A stretch of 64,000 nucleotides of DNA from an uncultured Candidatus Saccharibacteria bacterium (GTDB lineage: Bacteria > Patescibacteriota > Saccharimonadia > CAILAD01 > JADZBC01). The position numbers and the translations under genes were made by a program. The stretch covers positions 6,374 to 70,373 of the forward strand of contig CAYTBW010000005.1 of the NCBI GenBank assembly GCA_964436255.1, given 5' to 3'. Shown here piece by piece: positions 41,262-62,494 of this stretch. Positions within the stretch are counted from its first letter, which is position 1. Each line of letters starts with the position of its first letter. A model generated the notes under the pieces. The model did no database searches and had not been told where the DNA came from. It saw only the letters and a program-made list of their open reading frames with translations.

Positions 41262-41356
41262 GTAGCGTTCTTGGCAGCACATAACTAAGATATAGTACCA
41301 AAAACAGGCTAGGGGAGCAAGGTTGGCATGCATAGACCCAAACATAAGAAATATAC

Positions 41357-41724: not shown

Positions 41725-41843
41725 GGAGTCTACCAGTTCGCCACAACATTGTGTTAAAATAACTCGCGTAACCCACGTGAGTTATTTTAGTTTCACGCAG
41801 GATTAATTTTAGGGTAAAATTTGGTACAATTGGGCTATATTAG

Positions 41844-41916
41844 CGGGTATGGTTTAGTGGTAGAATGCGACCTTCCCAAGGTTGAGATACGGGTTCGATT
41901 CCCGTTACCCGCTCCA
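41844..41916 (+). tRNA. tRNA-Gly (anticodon CCC)
   Basis: 73 nt; acceptor GCGGGTA/TACCCGC, anticodon loop TTCCCAA, T-loop GGTTCGATTCC, CCA encoded. Confidence 0.8.
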
Positions 41917-42140
41917 TGACTGAACGACTGGCTGTAGCCAGGTGCACAGTCATATATGTACCAACCTTGGTAACTTAACAGGTTTGAGTTCCGTCAAAAT
42001 CAGACATCTTGCCTTGACATCGTGATAACGCGCGGTAAACCGAAGTGCGTAGCACTGTTTGTCAAGCGAAGAGGAGAATTTATGCCAAGGAGTGGAGCTC
42101 ATTGTCTGTTATGAGCGACTAAAAGGCATAAAATCGACGA

Positions 42141-42216
42141 GCCACCTTAGCTCAGTTGGTAGAGCGACGCTTTCGTAAAGCGTAGGTCGCCGGTTCAATC
42201 CCGGCAGGTGGCTCCA
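42141..42216 (+). tRNA. tRNA-Thr (anticodon CGT)
   Basis: 76 nt; GCCACCT acceptor, D-loop AGCTCAGTTGGTAGAGC, anticodon loop TTCGTAA, T-loop GGTTCAATCC, discriminator U, CCA. Confidence 0.8.
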
Positions 42217-42263
42217 GGAATTATCTCCCCCTAGCAGGCTCAAAATGCTATACTACTATCAAG

Positions 42264-42653
42264 ATGAAAAAGAAGCTTAAAGGCCAGCTTGGCCAGGTTA
42301 AAAGGCACCAGCTTTTTAGCGACACTCCTTTGTTAATAGTAGTCTTGTTCAACGTGGCAATTCTGCTGGGCCTGCTGTTTTGGAGTTTTAATAACATAAA
42401 GCCAACGGAACTATCTGTACCGATTCGGTTCACGAGCTTCGCTAACTTCGATATCCTTGGGAAATGGTATCAGCTCTATGAATTATTCCTGATTGCCCTA
42501 ACTGTGTTCGCCTGCAACCTTGTTTTGGCCTTAGTCGCACATTCTAAGCACCGCTTCCTGAGTGTTGTGCTGTTGGGGGTGAGCGTAGTGGTTTCAATTT
42601 TGTGCTTTGCTATGCTGGTTGGCTTTACGGCAATTAACTTCGGCGGGGTATAG
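42264..42653 (+). CDS. Small multi-TM membrane protein
   Basis: 129 aa; 3-4 predicted TM helices; upstream of GT2 gene. Confidence 0.5.
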   Translation: MKKKLKGQLGQVKRHQLFSDTPLLIVVLFNVAILLGLLFWSFNNIKPTELSVPIRFTSFANFDILGKWYQLYELFLIALTVFACNLVLALVAHSKHRFLSVVLLGVSVVVSILCFAMLVGFTAINFGGV

Positions 42654-42656
42654 GTT

Positions 42657-44342
42657 ATGGCTCGTCGTACCATCCCGCGCATTTCACTAGGCTTTGCAGA
42701 CACTCATTGGTTTTATCGCTTACTCGAGATCGCCCCAGGCCTGCTCACCTGGACGATAATCCTCTTACCATTTTACCTAAGCTTCAGTGCACCAGTAGTG
42801 TTGGCATACTTCATTATCGCCTTTGATATCTACTGGCTGCTCAAATCGGTGCGCATGAGCACAAATCTGATCATAGCCTACAGAAGGTACAAGAATAACA
42901 AAACGGTCAAATGGGAGCAGCGATCAAAGGATCTAAACAACCTCGCTGCAGCATTAAAACAAAAGCAAGAAGAGTTTCTGGAAATGCCGCGCCCGACCAT
43001 TTGGCAGCGCATCATGCCGAACGCCGAAACCCGTCAGCGCAAAGAGCTGAAGCGCTACATTGCCGAGCTCCAGGTGCTCGCAAGTCACGAGGATTTACTC
43101 ATGAAGCCAAAAGACCTGTACCACATGGTAATTATGCCGTGCTATAAGGTGATGCCAGAGGTGGTTGAGCCGTCGATTGAGGCTGTACTTAAATCCAGCA
43201 ATGATGCCAAGAAGATTATATTTATTCTGGCCTACGAAGAGCGCGGGGGTGAGGAATCCGAGCGTAATGCAGAGCAAATGGCAGTGAAGTATAAGAACTC
43301 CTTTAAGACCTTCCGGATCGTTAAGCACCCAGATGGTATTAAAGGTGAGCTGCGCGGCAAAGGTGCCAACATTACTTTTGCCGGTAGGGCCTCCCTTGCA
43401 ATCGTAGAAGAACTTGAAATACCTGTAGGTAATGTAATTGTTACAACGTTAGACGAAGATAACATTGTAGACCCGAACTACTTTTCCTACCTGGCAGCCT
43501 CATACGCCTCGGAGCCGAACCGTCGCCGTAGGTCGTTCCAGCCGATCGCTATGTATTTGACCAATATATGGGACGTGCCGGCTCCTATGAGGGTGATTGC
43601 TAGCGGTAATTCATTCTGGAACATGATTGAGATGACTAGGCCACACCGCTTGCGTAACTTTGCATCCCACGGACAGGGCTTACAGACCCTGATTGATACC
43701 GACTTTTGGTCAGTCACAACCGTAGTAGAAGACGGCCATCAGTACTGGCGCACGTACTTTACTTACGATGGGGACCACAAGGTCATTCCAATGTATGTAC
43801 CGATCTACCAGGACGCCATAGAGGGTCGGAGTTACCGCCACGCGTTCAAGAATCAGTTTGTACAGCTGCGACGGTGGGCATGGGGGGTGAGTGATTTTGC
43901 CTATGCAGTGCGCGAAGCAGTCAAAAACCCGCGGGCTCCGTTTGGCGACAAGTTTGTACAAATAGCTCGCTTGCTCGAAGGCCACGTAAGCTGGGCTACG
44001 GCCCCCTTGGTGCTTGCGTACTACGCATGGCTGCCATTATTGCTCAACCCGTCCTTTAAAGACCAAGTATTAGCGCACCAGCTGCCAGTAATAGCGTCCA
44101 ACGTCCTTACTTTTGCCTCAGTCGGTATCGTAGCCACCATATGGGTCAGTCTATTACTCCTGCCACCTCGCCCGGCGCACCACAAAAAGACTCGATTCAT
44201 ATCAATGCTCCTACAGTGGCTGTTGTTACCTATTACGACCGTAGCATTCGGTGCGTTCGCAGCTCTAAACGCGCAAACACGGCTCATGTTTGGCAAGTAT
44301 CTGGAGGAGTTCGATGTAACCGAAAAGGGCATTAAGAAGTGA
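42657..44342 (+). CDS. Processive family-2 glycosyltransferase (cellulose/chitin-synthase-like)
   Basis: 561 aa; N-terminal TMs, DxD (TLDEDN), QxxRW motif (FVQLRRWAWG), C-terminal TMs. Confidence 0.7.
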   Translation: MARRTIPRISLGFADTHWFYRLLEIAPGLLTWTIILLPFYLSFSAPVVLAYFIIAFDIYWLLKSVRMSTNLIIAYRRYKNNKTVKWEQRSKDLNNLAAALKQKQEEFLEMPRPTIWQRIMPNAETRQRKELKRYIAELQVLASHEDLLMKPKDLYHMVIMPCYKVMPEVVEPSIEAVLKSSNDAKKIIFILAYEERGGEESERNAEQMAVKYKNSFKTFRIVKHPDGIKGELRGKGANITFAGRASLAIVEELEIPVGNVIVTTLDEDNIVDPNYFSYLAASYASEPNRRRRSFQPIAMYLTNIWDVPAPMRVIASGNSFWNMIEMTRPHRLRNFASHGQGLQTLIDTDFWSVTTVVEDGHQYWRTYFTYDGDHKVIPMYVPIYQDAIEGRSYRHAFKNQFVQLRRWAWGVSDFAYAVREAVKNPRAPFGDKFVQIARLLEGHVSWATAPLVLAYYAWLPLLLNPSFKDQVLAHQLPVIASNVLTFASVGIVATIWVSLLLLPPRPAHHKKTRFISMLLQWLLLPITTVAFGAFAALNAQTRLMFGKYLEEFDVTEKGIKK

Positions 44343-47086: not shown

Positions 47087-47521
47087 TTAAACGAGGCGGG
47101 AGGGGTCTTTGCTATCTGTTGGCGGGTGGTCAGCTAGGTAGCGCATAGTGGCAGTAATACTTAGTGGGCGAATGCTTTTAACCACGATATCAATAATCTC
47201 ATCCCGGTGGAGGAGGGGTTTTTGCATAGCCTGCAGCTTGTGCTCGATGGTGGCTGTGATGTTGTCGATATTCTGATCATCACCCAGCTTGCTTCCTACG
47301 AATGCCATATACACGCTGCTGAACAAGCGGGCTCGGCTATAGGGGAGTACGGCGTCGCTGCGTTGTTTAACGTCCAAAAAGCCTAAGTCATACGCCTCAT
47401 ACGTGGTAAAGGCGTTCAGGCAACTCTTGCAGCGTCTGCGGCGCCATACTTGGGTGCTGTGGGCGGTACCGCGGCTATTGAACACCTCTGTTTTATTATG
47501 TTGGCAAAATGGGCATAACAT
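47087..47521 (-). CDS. nrdR: Transcriptional repressor NrdR
   Basis: 144 aa; N-terminal zinc ribbon MLCPFCQHNKTEVFNSR...CKSC and ATP-cone. Confidence 0.9.
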   Translation of the reverse strand: MLCPFCQHNKTEVFNSRGTAHSTQVWRRRRCKSCLNAFTTYEAYDLGFLDVKQRSDAVLPYSRARLFSSVYMAFVGSKLGDDQNIDNITATIEHKLQAMQKPLLHRDEIIDIVVKSIRPLSITATMRYLADHPPTDSKDPSRLV

Positions 47522-47634
47522 GACTATATGTTGTCATATGACTATAAAAATAACAAGTGGAAAAGTCTTTTTGGGTGGGGAAAAGTGAATAAATATTGTG
47601 TTTTAAGGTGTTGTAGAAAGTGTGCAGAAAGGGT

Positions 47635-47664
47635 TTGCATACTTAAGACGCTTAAGGTTATAAT
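47635..47664 (+). promoter_or_regulatory. Promoter TTGCAT-17-(T)TATAAT for first giant surface-protein gene
   Basis: Near-consensus; places transcription start downstream of track ORF start 47528, supporting ATG 47720. Confidence 0.5.
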
Positions 47665-47719
47665 GAGCCTATATATAACGCTTAAGGTAAGTGCCAGGAA
47701 AAAGACTCCGCACAAAGAG

Positions 47720-50700
47720 ATGGTGAAACCAAAATCAAATCAAACTAGTTTCAAGCGTGTTATTACCTTCTTGCCCAAGAAGGCTCTTCGCGTTGTGCGC
47801 AAAGCCCACCACCACGCCATCACGAAACCTCACACCCACCTGATGAACAAGGGAAAGGTCTACGCTACCTGGCATACAAAAAAGCACCACCACAAAGTTC
47901 ACCTAGGTATAGCTAGTGTATGGGCCATGATTGCCATCGTAGGCGCCCTAGGGCTTACTAACATTGCCAAAGCCTATGACACCTTCACTCAATCTGATTG
48001 GAGCGGTGGGGTTGGAAGCTCAACCACTGACCAGTACTTATATAAGGATAATATTGTTGTTTCTAACGCTGGCGAACTGTCACTTGACTCCACGGTTATA
48101 TCTAATTGGTGCAGTACGGCGAATTGCGATAACAACTGGACTAAGCGCAAAAAGATAGAAATAAGCAATCAGGGCGTGGAAAGAACTGACTATCAGGTTG
48201 AGTTCACAGTATTCGACACTGGTGCCGACATGGATCCGTATTTCCACACCCTACGCTTTACAAACGAAGCTGGCGACACAGATCTCCCATTTACATTCCG
48301 TAATGTTAATGAGGATGTTTCAGCTAAAGTAATGGTAAAGCTGCCGATCTTGTACGGGGCGACTACAACTAGTGTGTATGTGTACTACGGTAACTTGACC
48401 GCAGGCAGCGCGGAAAACTCAAATGCAGTTTATGACTGGTACGACACCTTTAATGGCTCGGCTGGCCAGCTTGACCCTGCCAAATGGCAGGACGTGGCTA
48501 CTGCTGAGGCCAATGGGGTCACGCTGGATGGAAGTGACAACCTAACCGCTGACGGGAGCACTGCCTCAGGCATTAACCTTATGCCAGTTAATAGCGCGAT
48601 TGACCGAAGCGACCCTGCTGTGTATGAAATAAAGCACCTAGGTGTGCAGGCTATTGGTAACAACGCCACCTGCAATGTCGACAATCAATCTTGGTTTGGC
48701 CCAAAGGTGGTTGGGTCGGATGGGCCCGACCAAGATGATTATGGAATCACGTTAGGTTGCAACGAGGGGCAAAATACCTACACTATTAGTGCCTACAGCG
48801 CCGCCGGCGGCAATAGTTGGGCTGGGTCTTATCCTGTGCCTCTTTCTGATAGAAACTTCGGTTCGGGTGGTTTCGGATACAAAGTAGGCTTAAGTGGCGG
48901 GGCGCCCGTGTTGCAGTACTCTACAAGTGGTGGCTCCAGCGGGGCTGACTGGACAGATTTCGAATCAAGCGTGTATCAAATTGGGTCAGTTCCATCTCTA
49001 AACTTCTTTATCACAGCGAGTCCGGGGTCACAGTTCACGATAGATAGTATGTATCGATATAAGGCAGGCGCTAACTACGGTGCCAATGTTGGCTTAGAAG
49101 AATCAATTGGGGGGAGTGTCGGTACTATATCCTCCGCTGCTTTTGACTTAGGCGGCGTTGATTTGGAATCGTGGGCGATAGGTGCTGTTCATTTAACAAC
49201 GTCTGGTAGTGGGGGTAGAGCAGCCCTCAAGGTATATCGCAGCTACGGTGCGGCTGGGCCGTCTGACTTCCTGTATTGTCCAATCGCTCTTGACGGCGAA
49301 ACGCCATCAACCGGTACGGCAGACTGTTTGCTGAATGGGCACGGTGATGGCGCTACATACTTATACTATCAGGTAGTCATGAGCGGGGATGCGGGGAATG
49401 ATTTCAAGGTAGAGGAGGTTAGTCTCGACTACCTTCTGGACGTGACTCCGCCAACTAATCCAACCACTCTTACGATGGCCGAGGGCCCAGGTGGGCAGGC
49501 CATTAGCAATGGCGGTTTTACGAATTTGCGCACAATACCCACTGAGCTAGGTGGGCAGGTCGGTAAGCCTTACTTCGAGTGGAGCGGGGCAGCAGACAAC
49601 GTTGGTGGAGCTGGGGTACTCGGCTACTGCATATACTTTGGTACCGATAATAGCGCCGACCCGCTAACGAGCAAGGGCGCAATTACAGATAATAGCCCGC
49701 TCGATACAAACGGGACTTGCCCCTACGCTATAACTGGCACCAGTTTGGACTTTGCGAATGTCACAACGTCAATTGACCTGACTCAGTTTGCGATTAACGA
49801 TGCTAACTACTACTTACGTATTCGTACACTCGATGCCGTATACAACCCAAGCGTTGCTACAGAGCAGTTTGAGTTCAAGCTAGACTCCACGTACCCCGGG
49901 ATGTTCAGCCCCGTGATATCCGCTGCAACCAGGCAAGGCCCTGAGGTAGAGATCACTTGGCCTACTACGCTTGGGGGTATGTTGCCATTACCGACAGACA
50001 ATGCTTCGGAATTATTTGGCGGGGGCCCTGGCAACCCAAGTGGCGTAGCGGGGATCGCTTGGTGCTCCTCCGACACAGCAGGAGCATTTGCTGGCCACTG
50101 CATGTCTGATCCTAATGCCCCGGTTTGGCACGGAGCGAACGGGTCTGCTGCTGGTAGCTTCCTAGATATGATTAACGGTAACTTTACTTTTGCAGATGCT
50201 TCTGCTGGACAGCTCATTGCAGACCTGAGCGAGGAGCCCACTACTGACTTTAACGGCCCGAACACTATGTATATCGCTGTATTCGACAACGCTGGGAACT
50301 TTACTAACATGCCGGCCAGTGGCTTTAATGTAGGCAATAACAAGTTCGTCGTCTTCAACAACACCCCGCCATCTGCCCCACAGAACTTGGCTGCTACGCC
50401 AACCACTAACACTGCCAACAGCTTTGCCTTCAGCTGGGATGCTCCGAGCGACCTCGTAGGCCTGACCCAGAACGCTAACTACTGCTGGAGTGTAAACGTT
50501 CTGCCAAACGCCAACAATTGTACCTATGCCGGAGTAGGGGTAGAGAACCTAAGCGCTGACGCTTACGCTACTCAGCCAGGTCTCAACACGATGTATGTGG
50601 TAGCCAAAGACGAAGCTGGCAACATAGACTACGCTAACTATGCATCTACTACCTTTACCGCTAACACCTCAGCTCCTGGCGCTCCGCGCAACCTCGAAGT

Positions 50701-52189
50701 CATTGACGCCTCTAACAAGGCCACCAGCACTTGGAAGCTGGCTCTAAGCTGGGATATCCCACTCTTAGCTGGTTCGGGCATAGATAAGTACAAGATCTTC
50801 CGTAGCCAAGACGACATTACCTACACCGAGATTGGTTCTACTACTGCCACTAGCTTCGTAGATGCTGGCCTCAGCCAAGTAGAGTACTTCTACAAGATTA
50901 AAGCCTGTGACAATGCCAATAACTGTGGTCTCTACAGCGACATGGATTCACTCCTACCAACTGGCCGCTACACTGACCCTGCCAACTTAGTGTCTGGACC
51001 TCAAGTTGTGAACATTAAGACGAGGAGTGCTGGCATCCAGTGGAGTACTGACCGCGTAAGTGACACCAAGGTAGCGTATGGTACCAGCAGCAACAACTAC
51101 CAAGCTGCTCAAGCCTACCAAGCTGCTCAAGTGACCAGCCACAGCATAGAGCTCAGCAACCTCCAGCCCGGAACTACCTATTACTACCGAGCCCGCTGGA
51201 CCGACGATGACGGTAATACTGGCCAGTCTGCTGAACTCCAGTTCAAGACCCAACCAGCTCCAGTAGTGAGTGACGCTACCATTAGTAACATTAACCTCAG
51301 CAGTGCTACCCTTGGCTTTACCACCCAAGCAGCCGTCAAAGCCAAGATCTACTACGGTACCTCTACCGCCTTTGGCTCACTCGTAACCGTAAACACTTCA
51401 ACTGACCTATCTACCTACACCACACAGCTTAGTGACTTAGCTGATGGTACCAAGTACTACTACCGCATTAACACGGTAGACAGCTCCGGGTATGAATATG
51501 ATGGTAGTGTAGCAAGTTTTACAACGATAGCTCGCCCGCGCATTAGCAATTTACGCTTCCAGACAGTCGAAGGCGAACCATCCTCGACGCAAAAGATTAC
51601 CTGGACCACCAATGTGCCGGCCAGTAGTGAAGTCGTATTCGGCCCAGTAGGTTTGCCACAGGCCAGTGTGAGCGAAGGTGGCGACTTGCGCACAGAGCAC
51701 GAAGTAACGGTGCGCGAGTTGCTGGATGACACTACATATAGCTTGATCGCCCGCTCCCGCGACGCCCTGGGTAACGTAGCCACCAGTGACCCTCAAGAGT
51801 TCCGTACTGCTCTAGACACCCGTGCCCCTAAAGCCTTCGACATTAACACCGAATCTAGTATTCGTGGTACGGGTGCTGAAGCTCGTGGACAAATCATCGT
51901 AACGTGGAAGACGGACGAACCATCTACCAGCCAAGTAAGCTATGGCGTAGGTGCAGGGTCCTCTGCTAGCACCAAGACGGCCGAAGACGCTCGACTAACC
52001 ACTGACCACATTGTGATCATCTCTGACCTATCTACCTCGAGCGTATACAACGTGCAAGCTATCTCTGCTGACAAGGCTGGCAACAAGGTAGTTTCTACCG
52101 ACCAGTCTGTAGTAGTAGGTAGGGGAACAGACAACATCTTTAGCATCATCTTCGGCGCCTTACAGAAGATATTCGGGTTGGAGTTGTAG
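47720..52189 (+). CDS. Giant FN3-repeat cell-surface protein (paralog 1)
   Basis: ~1489 aa from ATG 47720 (track start 47528 lies upstream of promoter); His-rich N-terminus + TM (IASVWAMIAIVGALGL), multiple fibronectin-III-like repeats, conserved C-terminal anchor-like tail (IFSIIFGALQKIFGLEL). Confidence 0.8.
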   Translation: MVKPKSNQTSFKRVITFLPKKALRVVRKAHHHAITKPHTHLMNKGKVYATWHTKKHHHKVHLGIASVWAMIAIVGALGLTNIAKAYDTFTQSDWSGGVGSSTTDQYLYKDNIVVSNAGELSLDSTVISNWCSTANCDNNWTKRKKIEISNQGVERTDYQVEFTVFDTGADMDPYFHTLRFTNEAGDTDLPFTFRNVNEDVSAKVMVKLPILYGATTTSVYVYYGNLTAGSAENSNAVYDWYDTFNGSAGQLDPAKWQDVATAEANGVTLDGSDNLTADGSTASGINLMPVNSAIDRSDPAVYEIKHLGVQAIGNNATCNVDNQSWFGPKVVGSDGPDQDDYGITLGCNEGQNTYTISAYSAAGGNSWAGSYPVPLSDRNFGSGGFGYKVGLSGGAPVLQYSTSGGSSGADWTDFESSVYQIGSVPSLNFFITASPGSQFTIDSMYRYKAGANYGANVGLEESIGGSVGTISSAAFDLGGVDLESWAIGAVHLTTSGSGGRAALKVYRSYGAAGPSDFLYCPIALDGETPSTGTADCLLNGHGDGATYLYYQVVMSGDAGNDFKVEEVSLDYLLDVTPPTNPTTLTMAEGPGGQAISNGGFTNLRTIPTELGGQVGKPYFEWSGAADNVGGAGVLGYCIYFGTDNSADPLTSKGAITDNSPLDTNGTCPYAITGTSLDFANVTTSIDLTQFAINDANYYLRIRTLDAVYNPSVATEQFEFKLDSTYPGMFSPVISAATRQGPEVEITWPTTLGGMLPLPTDNASELFGGGPGNPSGVAGIAWCSSDTAGAFAGHCMSDPNAPVWHGANGSAAGSFLDMINGNFTFADASAGQLIADLSEEPTTDFNGPNTMYIAVFDNAGNFTNMPASGFNVGNNKFVVFNNTPPSAPQNLAATPTTNTANSFAFSWDAPSDLVGLTQNANYCWSVNVLPNANNCTYAGVGVENLSADAYATQPGLNTMYVVAKDEAGNIDYANYASTTFTANTSAPGAPRNLEVIDASNKATSTWKLALSWDIPLLAGSGIDKYKIFRSQDDITYTEIGSTTATSFVDAGLSQVEYFYKIKACDNANNCGLYSDMDSLLPTGRYTDPANLVSGPQVVNIKTRSAGIQWSTDRVSDTKVAYGTSSNNYQAAQAYQAAQVTSHSIELSNLQPGTTYYYRARWTDDDGNTGQSAELQFKTQPAPVVSDATISNINLSSATLGFTTQAAVKAKIYYGTSTAFGSLVTVNTSTDLSTYTTQLSDLADGTKYYYRINTVDSSGYEYDGSVASFTTIARPRISNLRFQTVEGEPSSTQKITWTTNVPASSEVVFGPVGLPQASVSEGGDLRTEHEVTVRELLDDTTYSLIARSRDALGNVATSDPQEFRTALDTRAPKAFDINTESSIRGTGAEARGQIIVTWKTDEPSTSQVSYGVGAGSSASTKTAEDARLTTDHIVIISDLSTSSVYNVQAISADKAGNKVVSTDQSVVVGRGTDNIFSIIFGALQKIFGLEL

Positions 52190-52284
52190 GGGATGAGGGT
52201 AAAAACACACATGACTACATTATTTGCTCACTACCAACTGGTTGCTGATTTAGCCTCGAATCCGTACAATGGTAGGAACCGCTT

Positions 52285-55200
52285 ATGCTAAAACACATAA
52301 CAACAACAGCCAAGAAAGTTCATCACCACACGGTCGGTAAACCCCATGCCCACCTGATGGCCAAGGGTAAGGCGTACGCTACGTGGCATACCAAAAAGCA
52401 TCACCATAAGGTCCACCTAGGCATAGCTAGTGTCTGGGCTATGATAGCCATTGTAGGTGCACTTGGGCTTAGCAACGTAGCTAAAGCAATCGATACCTTT
52501 ACTCAGTCCGACTGGAGTGGCGGGGTAGGCACCTCGACTGTCGATGAGTATTTCAACCAAAGTGGAAATATAGATGCTTCTGTATCGGGAGAACTCAGCT
52601 TGGACGCACTGGCACCTACAATCTCAGATTGGTGTAGCACCGCGAATTGTGACAACAACTGGACCAAACGAAAGCAGATATTCTTCCAGAACAACGGCGG
52701 AGCTCGGACTGATTATCAGGTGTATCTTGCTATACCATATGACGCCGCAATGCGGGCGGATTTTGGCGACTTGAGGTTTACAAACGCAGCCGGTGATACA
52801 GACTTGCCATACTATATCGACCATGTTTCAAATGGCGTATCCGCGCGCGTGTACGTTAAGACCGATATAGGTGCCGGCGGCAACTTCATTAGAATGTATT
52901 ATGGTAATGGCGCAGCCTCTGGCCAAAGTGACGGGGAAGCTACCATGGACTTCTTCGATGAATTTGATGGTACAGGTACTCTTGACCCAACGAAGTGGGA
53001 CAATGTAAACGACCTTGCAACTGCAGGCGTTGGCTTGAGCGGCGATGGGGCAATGGTAGTAAATAGCACGACTACAAACGGCATCAACATCATCCCAAGT
53101 AGTGGTAGAGCTTCAGTTCTTCGCAATGACCCGGCAGTTTTTGACTTTGGCCTTCAGGTGAACTCCATGGGGAATAACGGCGACTGTAACGGGAGTGATA
53201 TTAGCCCCAATATGTGGACTAACAGTAACGGCATTGATAATTACACAGTCGGCTTTAGTTGCCAAAACAATGGGGGCTCCTATAGTGTCTACTCCCATGC
53301 CAGCACAGCCGACAGTGGTGATGGGGGGTACCCCGGTGCTGGGATGGATAACCAGCCGCTTGGTCAATTTCCCGTAAAATACCGGGTTGGGCTTGATGGC
53401 GCTAATGGTATAGCCGCTTATAATAACAACTATCACCTTGGGGACTGGGTAGACTTACTGGGTGCTAATAATAAGGCTGGCTCGCAATCGCCACTTAACT
53501 TTAGTTTTTACTTTAATGGTATCGGGACGGGCTTCAGGGTCGATAAGGTTGCCCGCCACAAGTCGGGCGCAGATCTGAGCACGCCATTGTTTGGTATCAC
53601 GGAGTTCGTGGGCGGCCGCTCTGGCTGGCTTACCTCTGCAACATTTGACACCGGCACTACGGAGTATAAGCTGTTCAATAACGTGCATATCGTCAGTAGC
53701 GGCTCTGGCGGCGAGGCTATGGTCCAGCCAAGGTTTGTTTCGAGTGCCAGTGATAACTCAAGCTATGATAACGCGTGCTCGTTCCTATACGATGGCACAG
53801 CCCCGAGTGTTTGTAATAACGGGGCTGAGCAGTACCTTAAGTATGCTGTGTTCATCTCCGCCGAGGATGGCAGCAACTTCAAGGTTGAAGACATTAGTAT
53901 TGACTATACGGTAGACGGAACTGCCCCTACAAACCCAACAATCACTATGGCAGAAGGCTCGGGTGGCCAGGCAATCCCTAACGGCGGCTGGACGAACCTG
54001 CTAGCGATGCCGAGTACCCCAGGTGGCACCTTCGGCCAGACTACGTACAGTAAGCCTTACTTCGAGTGGAGTGGGGCGGCAGATAACGTCGGCGGATCTG
54101 GTGTATTGGGCTATTGTATATACTTTGGCAGGGATGACAGCGCCGACCCACTTGTGACGAAGGGGAGTATAACTACTTCAAGCCCGCTTGATACGAATGG
54201 GGCTTGCCCATATGCGATTGCCGGAACGAGCCTAGACCTGACCGGGCTTGGCACTGTAATGGACAACATCCAATACAATGGTGCAAGCGACGCCAATTAC
54301 TACCTGCGCATCCGAACGATCGACGCCGTATATAACCCAAGTGTGGATACCGAGCAGTTCGAGTTTAAGCTGGATACGGTGTCGCCGCTGGGCTTCACAG
54401 CGGTCGTTCCCGGGGCGACGGTTAGCGGGACGGCAATGAGGATAACCTGGCCTACGAGTGTTGATGTTCTTGGTAACGTATTGACGATTCCTGCCGATAA
54501 CTTGCAGAGTCTATTTGGGGGCCCGCCAGGCAACCCAAGTGACATCGCCGGCATAGCTTATTGTGTTGCAGATATCCCGCATACTTTTGCTGGACATTGC
54601 GTAGGTGGTTCGCAGGACGCGAGCTGGTATAAGGCCAACGGCGAAGCCCCGGTAACACTTCAGCAACTCCTTACTTCGACGCAGACAGGCCTGATACCGG
54701 CCACCTCAGGAGAGTACTTTGCTGATCTGAGCACCAACCCCGCCGTAGACTTTAATGGGCTGAACATTATCCAAATCATGCTCTTCGACAACGCTGGAAA
54801 CATAACCAACACGTTCGCTTCTGGCTATGACCCTTCTTCGGCAACGTTCGTCGTCTTCAACAACACCCCGCCATCTGCCCCACAGAACCTGGTAGCCACA
54901 CCAACTACCAACAACGCCAATAGCTTTGCCTTCAGCTGGGATGCTCCAAGTGACCTCGTAGGCCTCACCCAGAACGCCAACTACTGCTGGAGTGCTAATG
55001 TACTGCCAGATGCTAACAACTGTACCTTCGCCGGGGTAGGGGTGGAGAGCTTGAGCGCTGACGCCTACGCCACTCAGCCAGGCTTAAACACCATGTACGT
55101 TGTAGCTAAAGATGAAGCCGGCAACATAGACTACGCTAACTACGCCAGTGCTACCTTCACTGCCAACACCTCAGCTCCTGGCGCCCCACGTAACCTCGAA

Positions 55201-56688
55201 GTCATTGACGCCTCCAACAAGGCCACCAGCACCTGGAAGCTGGCTCTAAGCTGGGATGTACCACTCCTAGCTGGTTCCGGCGTAGACAAGTACAAGATCT
55301 TCCGCTCCGTGGACGACATTACCTACACCGAGATTGGTTCTACTACTGCAACCAGCTTCGTAGATGCTGGCCTCAGCCAAGTAGAGTACTACTACAAAAT
55401 TAAAGCCTGTGACAACGCCAACAACTGTGGACTCTACAGTGACATGGACTCACTCCTACCGACTGGTCGCTACACTGATCCTGCTAACTTGGTCTCTGGC
55501 CCTCAGGTCGTAGACATTAAAACCCGCAGTGCCCGCATCCAGTGGAGTACAGATAGAGTAAGTGACACTAAGGTAGCCTACGGCACCAGTAGTAATAACT
55601 ACCAAGCGGCTCAAGCCTACCAAGCTGCTCAAGTCACCAGCCACAGCATAGAGCTGAGCAACCTCCAGCCCGGTACTACCTACTACTACCGAGCTCGTTG
55701 GACTGATGATGATGGTAACACCGGCCAGTCCGCTGAACTTCAGTTCAAGACCCAACCAGCTCCAGTAGTAAGTGATGCATCCATTAGCAACATTAACCTT
55801 AGTAGTGCCACCCTTGGCTTCACAACCCAAGCAGCAACAAGAGCTAAGATCTACTACGGTACCAGTACTGCCTTCGGTTCACTCGTAACCGTAAACACCT
55901 CAACCGACCTATCTAGCTACACCACGCAGCTTAGCAACTTAGCTGACGGTACCAAGTACTTCTACCGCATTAACACCGTAGACAGCTCAGGTTATGAATA
56001 CGATGGAAGTGTTGCGAGCTTTACAACACTTCCAAGACCAAGGATTGAAAATCTGGTGCGTGCACAAATTGAAGGCGAACCGAGTAGCACACAGAAGATT
56101 ACGTGGACCACCAACGTTCCGGCTAGTAGTGAGGTAGCTTACAGCCCGACCGGAACTCCACAAGAAGTAGCGGTTACGAGTGAACTTAAAACTCAGCACG
56201 AGATGATCATCCGTGGCTTGAGTGACGATACCCAGTACACGTGGATCGCCCGCTCCCGCGACGCCCTGGGCAACGTAGCGGTCAGTGATCCTCAAGAGTT
56301 CCGTACTGCCCTAGACACCCGCCCACCAAAGGCCTTCGACATTAACACCGAATCCAGCATTCGTGGTACTGGTGCTGAAGCCCGTGGACAAATCATCGTT
56401 ACGTGGAAGACCGACGAACCATCTACCTCCCAAGTAAGCTATGGCGTAGGTGCAGGATCCTCTGCCACCACCAAGACAGCTGAAGACGCCAGACTGACCA
56501 CTGACCACATTGTGATCATCTCTGACCTATCTACGTCGAGTGTATACAATGTGCAGGCAATTTCAGCTGACAAGGCCGGTAACAAAGTAGTCTCTACTGA
56601 CCAGTCTGTGGTAGTAGGTAGGGGGACAGACAACATCTTTAGCATCATCTTCGGCGCCTTACAGAAGATATTCGGGGTGGAGTTGTAG
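52285..56688 (+). CDS. Giant FN3-repeat cell-surface protein (paralog 2)
   Basis: 1467 aa; same N-terminal His-rich/TM module; C-terminal ~615 aa nearly identical in protein to paralog 1 with many synonymous nucleotide differences. Confidence 0.85.
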   Translation: MLKHITTTAKKVHHHTVGKPHAHLMAKGKAYATWHTKKHHHKVHLGIASVWAMIAIVGALGLSNVAKAIDTFTQSDWSGGVGTSTVDEYFNQSGNIDASVSGELSLDALAPTISDWCSTANCDNNWTKRKQIFFQNNGGARTDYQVYLAIPYDAAMRADFGDLRFTNAAGDTDLPYYIDHVSNGVSARVYVKTDIGAGGNFIRMYYGNGAASGQSDGEATMDFFDEFDGTGTLDPTKWDNVNDLATAGVGLSGDGAMVVNSTTTNGINIIPSSGRASVLRNDPAVFDFGLQVNSMGNNGDCNGSDISPNMWTNSNGIDNYTVGFSCQNNGGSYSVYSHASTADSGDGGYPGAGMDNQPLGQFPVKYRVGLDGANGIAAYNNNYHLGDWVDLLGANNKAGSQSPLNFSFYFNGIGTGFRVDKVARHKSGADLSTPLFGITEFVGGRSGWLTSATFDTGTTEYKLFNNVHIVSSGSGGEAMVQPRFVSSASDNSSYDNACSFLYDGTAPSVCNNGAEQYLKYAVFISAEDGSNFKVEDISIDYTVDGTAPTNPTITMAEGSGGQAIPNGGWTNLLAMPSTPGGTFGQTTYSKPYFEWSGAADNVGGSGVLGYCIYFGRDDSADPLVTKGSITTSSPLDTNGACPYAIAGTSLDLTGLGTVMDNIQYNGASDANYYLRIRTIDAVYNPSVDTEQFEFKLDTVSPLGFTAVVPGATVSGTAMRITWPTSVDVLGNVLTIPADNLQSLFGGPPGNPSDIAGIAYCVADIPHTFAGHCVGGSQDASWYKANGEAPVTLQQLLTSTQTGLIPATSGEYFADLSTNPAVDFNGLNIIQIMLFDNAGNITNTFASGYDPSSATFVVFNNTPPSAPQNLVATPTTNNANSFAFSWDAPSDLVGLTQNANYCWSANVLPDANNCTFAGVGVESLSADAYATQPGLNTMYVVAKDEAGNIDYANYASATFTANTSAPGAPRNLEVIDASNKATSTWKLALSWDVPLLAGSGVDKYKIFRSVDDITYTEIGSTTATSFVDAGLSQVEYYYKIKACDNANNCGLYSDMDSLLPTGRYTDPANLVSGPQVVDIKTRSARIQWSTDRVSDTKVAYGTSSNNYQAAQAYQAAQVTSHSIELSNLQPGTTYYYRARWTDDDGNTGQSAELQFKTQPAPVVSDASISNINLSSATLGFTTQAATRAKIYYGTSTAFGSLVTVNTSTDLSSYTTQLSNLADGTKYFYRINTVDSSGYEYDGSVASFTTLPRPRIENLVRAQIEGEPSSTQKITWTTNVPASSEVAYSPTGTPQEVAVTSELKTQHEMIIRGLSDDTQYTWIARSRDALGNVAVSDPQEFRTALDTRPPKAFDINTESSIRGTGAEARGQIIVTWKTDEPSTSQVSYGVGAGSSATTKTAEDARLTTDHIVIISDLSTSSVYNVQAISADKAGNKVVSTDQSVVVGRGTDNIFSIIFGALQKIFGVEL

Positions 56689-56749
56689 GGGATGATTAAG
56701 TTGGTCCCAACAAAGTGCTTATGCTACAATAGGGGAAAGAATTGAGGCT

Positions 56750-57553
56750 ATGAACGACGACGTATTAGTAAAATTTGAGAATGTTTCCAAGCAGTTCCAG
56801 CTAGACGATGGGCCGGTTGAGGTATTGCATAACGTGAACTTCACCGTTAAGCGCGGGAGCTTCACAATCATTTATGGACCGTCTGGATCTGGTAAGTCGA
56901 CCTTACTCAACGTATTAACGGGACTGGAGCCGCCTACAACTGGATCGGTCGTGGTCGATGGTCAGCACCTATACACTATGGACGCTGATGAGCGAGCTGG
57001 TTTTCGTGCTCGCCGTATGGGCATGGTGTACCAGACCAATTACTGGGTGAACAGCCTTACCGCAATCGAGAACGTGGCACTGCCACTCTTCCTGACCGGC
57101 CGCACCTACCAGGAAGCAATGGGGGAGGCTAAGGCGAGTATTAGCCGTGTTGGACTGGATAAATATGCCGAGTATCGTCCTAATCTGCTCTCTGGTGGTC
57201 AGCAGCAGCGCATATCTATGGCGCGAGCATCGATCATCAGTCCCATGCTCCTGATCGCAGATGAGCCAACCGGTAACCTGGACTCCAAGAACGGCGATAT
57301 GATCATGGAGTTGGTGCAATCGTTCAAGAGCGACTTCGGTAGCACAATCATCCTGGTTACTCACAACTTAGACTACTTGCCACTTAGTGATTACCGCCTG
57401 TACATCAAAGATGGTGTTGTAACCGAGGAAAAGGGTTCATACAAGGGCCCAAACAAGCCAAAGGACGATGACGTAATGAAGGAATCGAAGCACCCGGCAC
57501 CAGTTTTGGACTTTAACCCCGTAATACCAAATAAGAAGGGCAATACACTATGA
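56750..57553 (+). CDS. ABC transporter ATP-binding protein (FtsE/MacB/LolD-like)
   Basis: 267 aa; Walker A GPSGSGKST, signature LSGGQQQRISMARA, Walker B LLIADEPTGNLD. Confidence 0.9.
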   Translation: MNDDVLVKFENVSKQFQLDDGPVEVLHNVNFTVKRGSFTIIYGPSGSGKSTLLNVLTGLEPPTTGSVVVDGQHLYTMDADERAGFRARRMGMVYQTNYWVNSLTAIENVALPLFLTGRTYQEAMGEAKASISRVGLDKYAEYRPNLLSGGQQQRISMARASIISPMLLIADEPTGNLDSKNGDMIMELVQSFKSDFGSTIILVTHNLDYLPLSDYRLYIKDGVVTEEKGSYKGPNKPKDDDVMKESKHPAPVLDFNPVIPNKKGNTL

Positions 57554-58770
57554 GCAAGCAAGCCCCACAGCCAGTGATCAAGCCAAATGTATTGGCCCGC
57601 ATTGCAGTTAAGAACTTATTCTTCAAACGCCTACGCACAACCCTAACGATATTGGGCGTTGTAATCGGTATTGGCTCGATCGTGTTCTTGCTTTCACTTG
57701 GTTTTGGCCTGCAGAAGCTGGTTGCCAGTCAAGTGGTGGGCTCAAAGTCGATTAAAACGATAGATGTAAGTACGCCAAAGTCGAAAAGCGTGAAGATTGA
57801 CCGCGAGCGCGTGGCTGGATTTAAGGACTTGGCAGGCGTTGAGCAGGTTGCTCGAGTGTATTATTCATCTGGTAAGGCTAGCTTGGGCGAGTCCGAAACT
57901 GACGTAGTTGTTTATGGCGCCGATCAAGCTTATGTAGATTTAAGCTCACTCAAGAGTATTGCTGGTTCGACCGGCACCATGGAGAGCACTGACAGCGTGA
58001 TCGTGAACACATCTCTTCTAAAGGCGATTGGTTCTAAGGAGAACACCAAGGCAGTTGGCAAGGAAATTACTCTAAACGTCACGATCCCGGGTCAGAAGGA
58101 TGGCGAAGAGGATAGAGTGGTGAAGCGCACGCTCAAAGTGGGCGCGGTAGTTGAGACCGGCGCTGGTTCAGAGGTGTTCACACCAATTAACGTATTCGAG
58201 GAAGAGGGCCTTACGAGTGCTACTCAGGCAAAGATCCTCGTCGCTGACCGCGATCAGGTAAGCGTAGTTCGTAAGCAGGTCGAGAACCAAGGCTTCATAA
58301 CCGCTTCACCAATCGATACGATCGATCAGATTAACCAGATCTTTAACCTCCTTAACGTCGTGCTCGTTGGCTTTGGTGGTATCGGTATGGTAATCGCGAT
58401 CCTGGGCATGTTTAATACCCTAACTATTTCACTCCTGGAGCGCACCAAGGAGTTCGGCCTTATGATCTCGCTCGGTGCTCGTGCCAGGGATGTTAAGCGC
58501 TTGTTCGTAGCTGAAGCGCTAACCCTATCTATGCTTGGTGGCATCTTCGGCATCGTGGCTGCCGTAATCCTTGGCGCAGTTACGAATGCGGTCGTAAACG
58601 GCTTTGCTCGCGGACGGGGAGTGACCGATACCGTTAGCCTATTCGCAATCTCACCAACCCTTATGTTTGCCACTTTGCTGTTCGTGGCTGGCCTTGGCTT
58701 CTTGGTTGTACTGTACCCAGCACACAAGGCTGCCAACACTAACCCCGTTGATTCTATGCGCCGCGAATAG
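57550..58770 (+). CDS. ABC transporter permease, FtsX/MacB-like
   Basis: 406 aa; N-terminal TM, large extracytoplasmic domain, three C-terminal TMs; coupled to ATPase. Confidence 0.8.
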   Translation: MSKQAPQPVIKPNVLARIAVKNLFFKRLRTTLTILGVVIGIGSIVFLLSLGFGLQKLVASQVVGSKSIKTIDVSTPKSKSVKIDRERVAGFKDLAGVEQVARVYYSSGKASLGESETDVVVYGADQAYVDLSSLKSIAGSTGTMESTDSVIVNTSLLKAIGSKENTKAVGKEITLNVTIPGQKDGEEDRVVKRTLKVGAVVETGAGSEVFTPINVFEEEGLTSATQAKILVADRDQVSVVRKQVENQGFITASPIDTIDQINQIFNLLNVVLVGFGGIGMVIAILGMFNTLTISLLERTKEFGLMISLGARARDVKRLFVAEALTLSMLGGIFGIVAAVILGAVTNAVVNGFARGRGVTDTVSLFAISPTLMFATLLFVAGLGFLVVLYPAHKAANTNPVDSMRRE

Positions 58771-58831
58771 CGTGTAAATTTATTCGTATTTTGTTTGGTA
58801 TATAGCCCCAAAGTGGGCTATAATCTTTTGT

Positions 58832-60141: not shown

Positions 60142-61707
60142 ATGACAGTACAGCTCGATCTTAGTAAAAAGATTACCCCAGCAAGTATGGGGCCTGTATT
60201 GTCGCCAAAAATAATCAAAAACGTTACGAATAAGTTCCAGGTGAAACACCAAAGTCCTGGACAGGGGCGTTTGGCCCTCTCGTTGTTCATTCAGGGCTTG
60301 GCGCCTTCGAAGGACGCGCTAAAGCAGGCTCTAAAGGGAGTCAGTTTCCCGCTCAATGTAGTCGCAGCCGAGTTGAGCACCGGTAGCACGATGCAGGATG
60401 AGGCACTGGCAGGGATCACGGAGCAGTGTCTGGGCACACTCGCGGAAGTTGGTCACGCAAAAGTAACTAGTCTACATATCGGTTTAGGCAAGATGTGCGT
60501 GTTGGCTCCCGACGGAATCCCGGTAGATAAGTTATGCGCCGAGGTGAAGAAGGTTGTTCGGTCGTTTGGTGCAGAAGTGAATATCGGCATCTGCGAAGAA
60601 GTAGCAAACGCGCGAGATCTACCGGTGGCGTATGGTCAATCATGCGAGGTGGCTCGGGTCGGTGAGCGCTTGTGGGGCAAACCTTACGCGTACCGTAAGG
60701 CTGACCTTGGCATCATCGGTGCGGTGGTAGACGAATGCGGTATGAAGGATCGTGCCGCGGCAGAGTCAGAAGCCATTTTAGCTTCACTGGCCAAGCCGAA
60801 AAACTTGTTACCCACACTAAAGCTGTTCTTTACTCACAACATGAGCCCTACGGAAGTTGCAAGGGCAGGTAGAATTCATCGCAATACGGTTATTTATAGG
60901 CTGGAGAAGATTAAGAATCAAACCGGGTTGGACCCTTTGGATTTCAATGATGCCTCTCAGTTATATCTGGCAATCGGCTTGACCGAGATCAATGAGCTAG
61001 GCGCGGTCTCATGCTGCTTGAGCACAAACGCATCGATAACCGAAAAAGTAGTGGCGGGCTTGTTCTGTAGTAGGGCCGACGTAAGCGACGATAAGATCCG
61101 AGAAGTTATGAGTAGCCTGGGCGTAACGTTGCCACAAGACTTTGCAATGTTCCTGCAGCGTAACGGCGGAGGTACCGCTATCGAGCCACAGGACTCAGTA
61201 ATCTTCTCGATGCCACTTGGTGATGATCTGGAATTCTCGATTCGGCCTATGCAAGGAAAGCGAGTTATTCAGGCTGCAGAAACGCTTGGCCAGCAGGGCA
61301 CGGTAGCGTATTTGAATAGCAGACGGGCCAAGGGGCACTTGAGCAAGGCTCTTCTGGTGCTCGTGCACGACCTGCGCCTAGGCGAGTCCAAATGGCCTAG
61401 TAGGCGCGTGATTGCCGAGGGGGCTGTGGGTGGCTTGCTCGCGCTGACAAACAGCAACAGGCTAAGAAGTTATGCTCGTGTTCGAGCTGGGGCTATCGTT
61501 GCCGAGATTCAGGCTAACAGGCAGCTAGAGAGAACTGCTACCGCGCTGCTTGATTCGTCTTTAAATCTCACGCTGGCGGCAAGCCGGCTCAAGGTGCACC
61601 GCAACACCCTGATTTACAGAGTCGGACGAATAAGGCAGGCAACGGGCTACGATCTTACGAGATTCGAAGATGCTCTGCAGATTCGCCTCGCACTCCTTAT
61701 GGCCTAA
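60142..61707 (+). CDS. PucR/CdaR-family regulator with internally duplicated C-terminal HTH
   Basis: 521 aa; two PucR-type HTH segments (GRIHRNTVIYRLEKIKNQTG and LKVHRNTLIYRVGRIRQATG). Confidence 0.6.
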   Translation: MTVQLDLSKKITPASMGPVLSPKIIKNVTNKFQVKHQSPGQGRLALSLFIQGLAPSKDALKQALKGVSFPLNVVAAELSTGSTMQDEALAGITEQCLGTLAEVGHAKVTSLHIGLGKMCVLAPDGIPVDKLCAEVKKVVRSFGAEVNIGICEEVANARDLPVAYGQSCEVARVGERLWGKPYAYRKADLGIIGAVVDECGMKDRAAAESEAILASLAKPKNLLPTLKLFFTHNMSPTEVARAGRIHRNTVIYRLEKIKNQTGLDPLDFNDASQLYLAIGLTEINELGAVSCCLSTNASITEKVVAGLFCSRADVSDDKIREVMSSLGVTLPQDFAMFLQRNGGGTAIEPQDSVIFSMPLGDDLEFSIRPMQGKRVIQAAETLGQQGTVAYLNSRRAKGHLSKALLVLVHDLRLGESKWPSRRVIAEGAVGGLLALTNSNRLRSYARVRAGAIVAEIQANRQLERTATALLDSSLNLTLAASRLKVHRNTLIYRVGRIRQATGYDLTRFEDALQIRLALLMA

Positions 61708-61772
61708 AGTTGACGGTAGGCGGGTTTTTAGCATAAAGTAGGGCATGGCTGCACCTCGGATGTAGCTTTTGT

Positions 61773-61849
61773 GGGCCCTTAGCTCAGTTGGCTAGAGCGC
61801 TTCCTTGACGTGGAAGAGGTCAGTGGTTCGAATCCTCTAGGGCCCACCA
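61773..61849 (+). tRNA. tRNA-Val (anticodon GAC)
   Basis: 77 nt; acceptor GGGCCCT/AGGGCCC, anticodon loop TTGACGT, T-loop GGTTCGAATCC, CCA. Confidence 0.8.
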
Positions 61850-61867
61850 GAAAAATGCAATTATTAT

Positions 61868-62494
61868 TTGGAGGTGAGGGTGTCAAAATTATCACAAACA
61901 GAAGCTCGCGCGTACCTCAAGGAGCATAACGTATTGAGGGAGAGTGGGCATTATGTTTACACCTCGGGCAAACATGGCGATACGTACCTGAACAAAGATG
62001 CCTTGCTACCGCACGTGGAGCTGGTAAGTGAGATATGCGAGCAAATAGCCAGCGAGTTTGTTGGGCAGGGCATTGATGCCGTTTTGGGCCCAGTGGCTGG
62101 CGGGGTGGTGTTGAGTCAGTGGGTGGCGCATCATTTGGGTAAGCTCGAAGGCCGCGAGGTGTTGGCCGTTTATGCCGATAAGCGCAAAACCGAAGGAGAG
62201 TTTATTATCCGGCGTGGTTACGATGAGATGATTCGCGGTAAGCGCATTCTGCTCGTTGACGATATTATCAACCAAGGCTCTTCCCTCAAGGGGCTGCAAC
62301 GTGAGGTTGCGCGGATAGGGTGCGAAATAGCTGGAGTGGGGTGTTTGTGTAATCGCTATGAATCAACTGCCGAGGACTTCGGAGTGCCAAAGCTGTACAG
62401 CTACATCGAATTCAAACTAAACATTTATGGGCCAGAGGACTGTCCCCTTTGCAAGGCCGGCATGCCTATGAGCAAAGGTCTGGGCCACGCTTGA
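61868..62494 (+). CDS. Type I phosphoribosyltransferase, PyrE-like
   Basis: 208 aa; PRPP-binding motif ILLVDDIINQGSSL; C-terminal CxxC pair. Confidence 0.6.
   Translation: MEVRVSKLSQTEARAYLKEHNVLRESGHYVYTSGKHGDTYLNKDALLPHVELVSEICEQIASEFVGQGIDAVLGPVAGGVVLSQWVAHHLGKLEGREVLAVYADKRKTEGEFIIRRGYDEMIRGKRILLVDDIINQGSSLKGLQREVARIGCEIAGVGCLCNRYESTAEDFGVPKLYSYIEFKLNIYGPEDCPLCKAGMPMSKGLGHA

Follow-up and report, generated by a model that had tools for sequence, protein, structure and literature searches.

How the ultra-small Patescibacteria recognize and hold their hosts is an open problem, in which only type IV pili and some 'adhesins' that are not linked to one another have so far been implicated. We analyzed a 64,000-nt stretch of DNA from an uncultured Candidatus Saccharibacteria bacterium (assembly GCA_964436255.1, contig CAYTBW010000005.1, positions 6,374 to 70,373; hereafter the window) in which two tandem genes for giant surface proteins, A1 and B1, are followed by genes for the ATPase and permease of an ATP-binding cassette (ABC) system. 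The locus raises the question of what ties these giants to the ABC pair, and why two proteins with divergent central regions have kept nearly the same C-terminal part. The best explanation as a whole, which we consider probable, is that the genes form a conserved and undescribed cassette in which the giants dock, by their stalk and tail, to a type VII ABC mechanotransducer dedicated to them. Functional coupling between giants and ABC pair is very likely, as is a history of constraint plus gene conversion in the shared part; the specific docking or actuation mechanism is put forward only tentatively.

47720-52189, forward strand: A1, intact gene for a giant surface protein of 1489 amino acids, in an open reading frame (ORF) reaching back to 47528 with its likely start at 47720
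52285-56688, forward strand: B1, tandem paralog of A1, intact gene for a giant surface protein of 1467 amino acids
56750-57553, forward strand: ABC ATPase of 267 amino acids, like the nucleotide-binding domains of LolD, FtsE and MacB
57550-58770, forward strand: permease of a type VII (MacB/LolCE-class) ABC system, 406 amino acids

With the permease as bait and one genome per species in GTDB, we recovered 79 loci, almost all from Saccharibacteria and a few from CPR3, Dojkabacteria, Buchananbacteria and UBA9296; the closest loci lie in species genomes named Saccharibacteria, Saccharimonadia or Patescibacteria. Linkage was counted in the 68 of 82 ABC cassettes with more than 1.5 kb of upstream sequence. 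A giant ORF (~600 to 3040 amino acids) ends at most 300 nt upstream on the same strand in 67 of these, and in the 68th the giant is adjacent on the opposite strand, in convergent orientation. The C-terminal ~615 amino acids of the upstream giants match B1 with E-values of 1e-140 to 1e-228. The reverse test, starting from giants, found the ABC pair directly downstream in 7/7 loci with unrelated surroundings, and start and stop codons overlap in several cassette loci. An initial annotation of this DNA had proposed that the adjacent ABC pair could act on the giants, and this conserved synteny bears out the tie. Cassettes also duplicate as units: co-resident cassettes of two genomes (L017, L019) differ, with identities of 0.49-0.50 in the C-terminal module and 0.42-0.43 in the permease, and giant, ATPase and permease all pair alike between the genomes, a weak comparison that involves two related genomes only. 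Giants that share one ABC pair are mutual nearest relatives in their C-terminal module (L011, L017, L035, L002, L027); same-genome giants with their own ABC pairs are 0.48-0.61 identical, versus 0.78-0.80 to their counterparts elsewhere.

The part shared by A1 and B1 is a Patescibacteria-wide unit made of six FN3 domains and an amphipathic C-terminal helix, laid out as follows.

50345-52189, forward strand: A1 conserved C-terminal module, six FN3-like domains and tail
51521-51820, forward strand: A1 paralog-specific island in FN3-5, ~75-100 codons, 68-71% amino-acid identity to B1, site pattern 'O'
52124-52186, forward strand: A1 tail GRGTDNIFSIIFGALQKIFGLEL, amphipathic helix, conserved in all ABC-adjacent giants
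54846-56688, forward strand: B1 conserved C-terminal module, six FN3-like domains and tail
54874-55167, forward strand: B1 FN3-1
55168-55461, forward strand: B1 FN3-2
55462-55731, forward strand: B1 FN3-3
55732-56031, forward strand: B1 FN3-4
56032-56310, forward strand: B1 FN3-5, which holds the paralog-specific island
56311-56622, forward strand: B1 FN3-6
56623-56685, forward strand: B1 tail

Pfam matches A1 and B1 to PF16656 (Pur_ac_phosph_N; 75.6 and 82.8 bits) and PF00041 (FN3; 48 bits), in agreement with the FN3-rich character first assigned to the shared part. An AlphaFold2 (AF2) model of the B1 module has a mean predicted local distance difference test score (pLDDT) of 89.1, with six beta-sandwiches and a helix at residues 602-614, and Foldseek searches with this model return generic tandem FN3 arrays with E-values down to 1e-19. 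We compared a profile of the module with a library of 1.84 billion proteins; the top 150 matches all have E<1e-219, in proteins of 565-6321 amino acids, and in most of them the module sits at the extreme C-terminus (for example residues 913-1545 of 1545 and 839-1471 of 1471). Module-bearing proteins are labeled 'hypothetical' or 'FN3 domain-containing' in their sources. The module is conserved at 40-55% identity across phyla, and its six FN3 domains are about equally conserved (0.60-0.68 among 76 giants). The last ~20 residues form a tail signature, approximately IIGRasDsvlsIIFNaLqkIFGf, that is conserved in every cassette, with a variant TVFEsVinSLxsIFxFLR in giants whose ABC partner is a MacB-like fusion protein. 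Plotted as a helical wheel, the tail shows an amphipathic pattern whose polar stripe is narrow; it is too short for a membrane span, and within the window only A1 and B1 carry the motif. Reading of the C-termini and NCBIfam searches found no C-terminal sorting signal in A1 or B1 (LPXTG with basic tail, PEP-CTERM, GlyGly-CTERM, MYXO-CTERM and similar), the sole NCBIfam match in this region being a sub-threshold FN3 match to MXAN_2561_fam.

The ABC pair is assigned by its domain content to the MacB superfamily (type VII), with PF12704 at 60 bits (cut-off 27) and PF02687 at 60.5 bits (cut-off 25.5) in the permease and PF00005 at 109.5 bits in the ATPase. The permease consists of a first transmembrane (TM) helix, a MacB periplasmic core domain and then three FtsX-type TM helices, and its gene overlaps the ATPase stop by 4 nt. 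The best NCBIfam matches of the ATPase are LolD (203.9 bits, cut-off 307.75) and FtsE TIGR02673 (185.6 bits, cut-off 264.85), both below cut-off. The permease scores 23-31 bits against FtsX_actino, FtsX_Gneg and FtsX_Gpos (cut-offs 225-255), where only the TM part at residues ~230-385 aligns, and it aligns full-length to MacB and LolCE models at far sub-threshold scores (lolCE 57.8 bits versus 362.45). The FtsE/FtsX-like identity first given to the pair is accordingly replaced: the FtsE and FtsX equivalogs fall far short, and the extracytoplasmic part is a MacB core. We also rejected LolCDE, with LolD and lolCE equivalogs both below cut-off, and MacB proper as in MacAB-TolC, given the split genes, scores of 62 and 170 bits against the MacB equivalog NF007826 (cut-off 966) and the absence by Pfam of any HlyD-family/MacA adaptor gene in the operon. 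Peptidoglycan hydrolases, which had been named as possible targets of the pair, find no support in the cassette: A1, B1 and the cassette neighbors hold no hydrolase or activator domain of the EnvC, PcsB, CwlO or RipC kind, and Pfam and NCBIfam detect no known partner domain for the pair. A type 1 secretion RTX adhesin of the LapA kind was set aside on the N-terminal hydrophobic signal, the lack of an RTX match and the MacB-type ABC system. Permeases vary elsewhere in the family: one of 688 amino acids with an enlarged extracytoplasmic region lies at L086 7625-9691, and three loci from distant Candidate Phyla Radiation (CPR) lineages (L076, L081, L082) encode a fused ATPase-permease of ~750 amino acids, which coincides with the different giant tail motif.

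To separate constraint from gene conversion we compared A1 and B1 with each other and with their counterparts. The C-terminal modules are 91% identical in protein over ~615 amino acids and ~87% identical in DNA, and from ~50321/54823 to the stop codons a codon alignment gives 82-100% amino-acid and 81-97% nucleotide identity. Nei-Gojobori analysis of the shared segment (613 codons) counts 203 synonymous and 93 non-synonymous differences, for a synonymous divergence (dS) of 0.74, a non-synonymous divergence (dN) of 0.069 and a dN/dS of 0.093. The tandem paralogy and strong purifying selection of the initial annotation are thus confirmed: dN/dS is far from 1 and the two DNA sequences are not identical, apart from near-identity over the last ~51 nt that runs ~10 nt past the stop codons. 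Outside the island in FN3-5, dN/dS drops to 0.04-0.05. Within it the paralogs reach a proportion of non-synonymous differences (pN) of 0.33 with the synonymous proportion (pS) saturated, and orthologs show dN/dS of 0.01-0.05; the island is a paralog-specific patch that escapes homogenization.

A four-gene test set A1 and B1 against A2 and B2 of L001, a syntenic JGI metagenome locus with the same ABC pair. In two sub-segments of the module, dS between A1 and B1 is 0.70 and 0.42, compared with 0.70 and 0.67 for A1-A2 and 0.62 and 0.45 for B1-B2, and paralog pS in the module (0.32-0.46) equals ortholog values. Outside the module paralog pS is saturated at 0.72-0.86, including in the equally conserved signal/TM segment. 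Since constraint on a protein cannot lower dS, the common ancestor of the two modules is much younger than the duplication, which points to gene conversion. In the sister locus A2 equals B2 over long tracts (dS 0.019 across 145 codons), B1 is identical to A2 over ~300 nt, and site patterns along the module alternate between 'genome', 'cross' and 'orthology' groupings, with the L001 paralogs grouping within their genome at alignment columns 1180-1300 and 1390-1530; in a Sawyer-type permutation most pairs reach P<=0.0004. The longest identical run between A1 and B1 is 51 nt, and because near-identity is limited to this terminal stretch and the ~10 nt beyond it, conversion in the window is old, not recent. 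The initial annotation had argued for selective maintenance rather than recent gene conversion; maintenance and the lack of recent conversion in the window both stand, but module dS at ortholog level indicates older conversion, so that the pattern is best described as concerted evolution under real purifying selection. For comparison, baseline genes between the window genome and L001 have dN/dS of 0.007-0.11 and dS of 0.03-1.15. Along window positions 40744-62180 and L001 2993-24521, blocks of 99-100% identity (for example 41042-42841, 47814-49313 and 60397-62180) alternate with blocks of ~80-88%, reflecting either genome-scale recombination mosaicism or strain-chimeric assembly.

Toward the N-terminus the giants follow a second logic. 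A1 comprises an extended signal, a DUF2341 head, a mid island, a second variable part, the six-FN3 stalk and the C-terminal helix, of which the N-terminal half maps as follows in the two paralogs.

47720-47974, forward strand: A1 extended signal peptide or signal anchor, with a His/Lys-rich cytoplasmic stretch (..AHHHAITKPHTHL..YATWHTKKHHHK), a hydrophobic helix and AKA directly before YDTFTQSDW
48248-48490, forward strand: A1 DUF2341 domain (PF10102, 40.6 bits, cut-off 23.4), within the variable head at ~47975-49444
49451-49897, forward strand: A1 second conserved island, between two variable parts, 70-80% amino-acid identity to B1
52285-52488, forward strand: B1 extended signal peptide or signal anchor (..KVHHHTVGKPHAHL..YATWHTKKHHHK), with a helix and AKA directly before IDTFTQSDW
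52759-53004, forward strand: B1 DUF2341 domain (PF10102, 63.7 bits, cut-off 23.4), within the variable head at ~52489-53919
53926-54384, forward strand: B1 second conserved island, counterpart of that in A1

The shared His-rich/TM segment described initially is present, at 88% amino-acid identity in the codon alignment with pN 0.15 and saturated pS (0.74). A WYxxWHxxxHH-like His/Trp-rich cytoplasmic motif (YATWHTKKHHHK in A1 and B1) recurs in ~1/3 of giants of various head classes and is absent from many family members; where present, it precedes a hydrophobic helix, after which an AxA site immediately adjoins the conserved start of the mature protein. We read this N-terminal region as an extended Sec signal peptide, with an uncleaved signal anchor as the alternative. 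Central divergence, also noted initially, applies to the heads (19-47% amino-acid identity) and overlooked the mid island between them and the second variable part. The mid island contains PYFEWSGAADNVGGxGVLGYCIYFG, which also occurs in a subset of other giants with E-values of 1e-8 to 1e-15.

Both giants score above the PF10102 gathering threshold and are DUF2341 proteins. LamG and PKD domains, which had been listed for annotation alongside FN3, do not appear: Pfam finds only DUF2341 and FN3/Pur_ac_phosph_N, with nothing in the head, middle and second variable pieces searched separately, Laminin_G included, and a ConA/LamG-like fold is hinted at by a low-confidence model. In Foldseek the best matches of this head model, built with AF2 from a 10-sequence alignment, are all ConA-like jelly rolls, weak ones (E 3e-4 at best, TM-score 0.2-0.4) that include glucanases, alginate lyases, toxin receptor-binding domains and phage receptor-binding proteins. 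A profile search of PDB sequences with the head returned nothing, and a word-index homolog search with it returned four DUF2341 fragments and nothing else. The heads are probably ConA-like jelly rolls as modeled and probably the ligand-binding part; they would bind host-surface glycans, and a role of A1 and B1 in host attachment, as the initial annotation had suggested, is plausible. At least three head classes occur on one stalk type: the DUF2341 type of A1 and B1 (..QSDWSGGVG), a ~2040-amino-acid type (..DxWDFsxPxDY) and others. Head divergence between strains is uneven, with A1 and A2 almost identical (dS 0.025) and B1 and B2 at pN 0.19 with saturated pS. X3, from a third strain and in the A position, carries a B-type head on a middle part and an FN3-5 island that are both A-type, an arrangement that reads as modular head exchange, with heads apparently shuffled between strains.

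These features can be combined into one mechanism. The giants would be exported via Sec and their signal cleaved, after which the constant stalk and tail would dock at the extracytoplasmic domain or TM groove of the permease, and the ABC machine would use ATP to anchor, assemble or mechanically actuate the giant, by analogy with FtsEX-PcsB/EnvC, LolCDE and MacB. A1 and B1 would be served by a single ABC pair, and their stalks would have to stay compatible; as two clients would share one machine, we read stalk and tail as the interface with the ABC pair, kept alike for that purpose. Compatibility could be maintained by purifying selection (dN/dS ~0.05) together with occasional conversion between the paralogs, while heads and one face of FN3-5 remain distinct. 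Homologous recombination, with the conserved ends as arms, may in turn move heads from one gene position or strain to another. An extension of this mechanism, which we think unlikely but worth stating, is an energized surface organelle in which the type VII ABC system replaces sortase-type anchoring and ATP serves to hold, to extend or retract, or to release a constant six-FN3 stalk with interchangeable glycan-binding heads, thereby controlling attachment of the epibiont to its host.

Several other accounts of the locus deserve weight. The nearest to docking is that the ABC pair serves export or release, extracting the giants from the membrane in the manner of LolCDE (for instance at their signal anchor) or expelling them across the wall; it draws on the same giant-ABC linkage, on LolD as the best ATPase model and full-length alignment of the permease to LolCE and MacB, and on the conserved His/Trp-rich n-region of about a third of the giants, and it differs from the docking reading only in the role of the ATPase cycle. 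Set against it, conservation throughout the cassettes falls on the stalk and tail at the C-terminus and not on the N-terminus, whose motif is often absent, and AxA sites suggest ordinary release by signal peptidase; these points are not decisive, and we hold the account to be unlikely. That the neighborhood is coincidental or regulatory, with the ABC pair an ordinary efflux or antimicrobial-peptide resistance pump, we consider highly improbable: multidrug or peptide export is a common annotation for MacB-type pairs and no known partner domain was detected, yet adjacency in 67/68 and 7/7 loci holds in Saccharibacteria, Dojkabacteria, CPR3 and other lineages although the flanking genes are unrelated, cassettes duplicate as units, and several loci have overlapping start and stop codons.

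Two further accounts concern the history of the paralogs. Purifying selection alone since the duplication, with no gene conversion, would fit dN/dS of 0.05-0.09 at dS 0.4-0.7 and the short longest identical run between A1 and B1, and the identity held across phyla means that constraint suffices to explain amino-acid identity; but the signal/TM segment is equally constrained and saturated at synonymous sites while the module sits at ortholog values, the near-identical 3' end extends past the stop codon, and the sister genome has identical A2-B2 tracts and cross-allele sharing, all of which make selection alone improbable. Could the mosaic instead be an artefact, with chimeric metagenome assemblies hiding simple orthologous pairs? 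The window, L001 and the third strain are all metagenome-assembled genomes or metagenome contigs, A2 and B2 are identical for hundreds of nucleotides, contigs of sample 3300043411 break inside giants, and blocks of 100% and of ~85% identity to L001 alternate along the window genome. Against this, no identical run between the paralogs of the window exceeds 51 nt, which makes a misassembly across them unlikely; the window by itself, independently of other assemblies, shows the contrast in dS between the module and the remainder of the gene; and Saccharibacteria are naturally competent (PMC10633639), so that genuine mosaicism is plausible. On balance we judge this account rather improbable.

Some points count against the docking reading itself. 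Contact of stalk and tail with the permease is something we infer, and the tail helix central to it is predicted with low pLDDT. Identity in the C-terminal module correlates with identity in the permease (r=0.77 across 61 cassettes), a correlation that partly reflects shared phylogeny. The proposed head fold depends on a B1 model with pLDDT 50. Signal cleavage is suggested by AxA motifs only, and if the signal stays uncleaved the head would lie near the membrane and the geometry would be altered. The mosaic at the sister locus could in part be a metagenome-assembly chimera, given that the A2/B2 identical stretches exceed typical k-mers and that third-strain contigs (sample 3300043411) break inside the giants. 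Finally, neither PF16656 nor PF10102 has a match in the annotation tables for Southlakia, a cultivated oral strain.

The A1 start at 47720 is likely because a start at 47528 would lie just 6 nt from the divergent nrdR start at 47521, and a promoter-like element and ribosome-binding site, both read from the sequence, support it.

47634-47665, forward strand: promoter-like TTGCAT-spacer-TATAAT ahead of A1, inside the longer ORF from 47528
~47711-47716, forward strand: ribosome-binding site AAAGAG of A1
58801-58822, forward strand: terminator-like hairpin 3' of the permease, from a consensus scan only

The consensus scan finds no terminator-like hairpin between A1, B1, ATPase and permease, which suggests a four-gene operon, in a scan whose number of promoter and terminator sites does not exceed shuffled expectation. 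The operon is flanked by nrdR, divergent upstream of A1, and by dinB and then a PucR-type regulator 3' of the permease. In the nrdR/A1 intergenic region ATGACTATA occurs twice, 18 nt apart, beside the nrdR start codon (47521-47550) within the AT-rich near-palindrome catgactatatgttgtcatatgactata, and may be a candidate NrdR-box-like operator. The regulator after dinB (60142-61707, 521 amino acids) contains two stretches of PucR-type HTH_30, matches SUKH/SMI1 weakly, and is 99-100% identical to the sister genome, compared with ~80-86% for the neighboring dinB.

Some cassettes outside the window have distinctive neighbors. At L085 418-5791, directly upstream of a 1069-amino-acid giant and its ABC genes, bAvd (PF22296) and a reverse transcriptase (RVT_1) flank two DDE transposases; the region looks like a diversity-generating retroelement, and a search of 15 kb revealed no pair of template and variable repeats. 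In L002 (14343-16080 and 21460-24227), two genes with Lcl_C domains lie between the giants of one cassette, with MCP, CheW and response-regulator genes after the ABC pair, and in L088 an Lcl_C gene closely precedes the giant.

Elsewhere in the window, a type IV pilus cluster typical of Saccharibacteria (11719-23273) encodes PilM, PilN-like, PilB (MshEN+T2SSE), PilT-like and PilC proteins and a prepilin peptidase, along with a 1002-amino-acid ORF (11719-14727) that has no Pfam match. The stretch 29500-35000 has a GC content of 0.55-0.57 versus ~0.49 and short ORFs only. It holds direct repeats ~1.2 kb apart (33087-33171/34307-34391, 92%; 33271-33341/34398-34468, 96%) and ends at tRNA-Arg(cct) 34463-34538, with a partial tRNA 3' repeat at 34629-34650; it looks like a small integrated element. 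A tyrosine integrase is encoded at 26179-27090. On the reverse strand, a large serine recombinase (5705-7300; Resolvase, Recombinase and Zn_ribbon_recom domains) overlaps the end of ychF.

Large FN3/ConA/DUF2341 surface proteins have been proposed to act in adhesion or host interaction in genome papers on Patescibacteria (PMC11809585, PMC13059738), and Southlakia requires envelope proteins of the FN3 and lectin-like kinds to grow as an epibiont (PMC10633639). Unlike the giants described here, those proteins are not described with a six-FN3 stalk and tail module or a MacB-type ABC partner, and our survey of literature on Saccharibacteria/CPR, MacB, FtsX, FN3 and DUF2341 found no published description of either. 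We considered Southlakia SEML1_0890 and SEML1_0891 as counterparts and rejected them as small and of unrelated architecture, the essential FN3 protein SEML1_0890 having 195 amino acids. The cassette thus appears novel as a type VII ABC system whose extracytoplasmic partner is a modular, adhesin-like giant. It offers an easily recognizable and widely conserved three-component module consisting of a variable head, a constant six-FN3 stalk with signature tail and a MacB-class ABC pair, which lends itself to searching, deletion, tagging and modeling; it would add giant surface proteins to the hydrolase activators, lipoproteins and adaptors among the extracytoplasmic partners of type VII ABC mechanotransducers; and it provides a clean case of segmental concerted evolution, with homogenization of a shared interface and escape of the specificity regions.

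Among known systems, MacAB-TolC and LolCDE share with the cassette the combination of ABC_tran, MacB_PCD and FtsX domains, with LolD the best ATPase model, whereas the cassette, in a CPR bacterium, has no MacA/HlyD adaptor, outer membrane partner or LolA/B logic, and its nucleotide-binding domain is fused as in MacB in only a few distant lineages. Gram-positive adhesins (MSCRAMM/SRRP, with YSIRK or KxYKxGKxW signals) have the same order of extended signal, variable head, Ig/FN3 stalk and C-terminal attachment element, and tandem paralogs with shared stalks and recombining heads occur among them too; unlike them, the giants lack an LPXTG/sortase signal and seem to attach through an amphipathic helix and an ABC pair, on a stalk that is a fixed six-domain unit conserved across phyla instead of variable repeats. 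In its possible mode of action the cassette most resembles FtsEX with its partners EnvC, PcsB, CwlO and RipC, a system that likewise combines a separate type VII ATPase with a four-TM FtsX-fold permease whose extracytoplasmic domain acts on a nearby-encoded partner and not on a solute. Where FtsX carries its own extracytoplasmic domain, the cassette permease has a MacB periplasmic core, and in place of a partner with a hydrolase or coiled-coil domain it would act on an FN3 stalk protein of one to three thousand amino acids.

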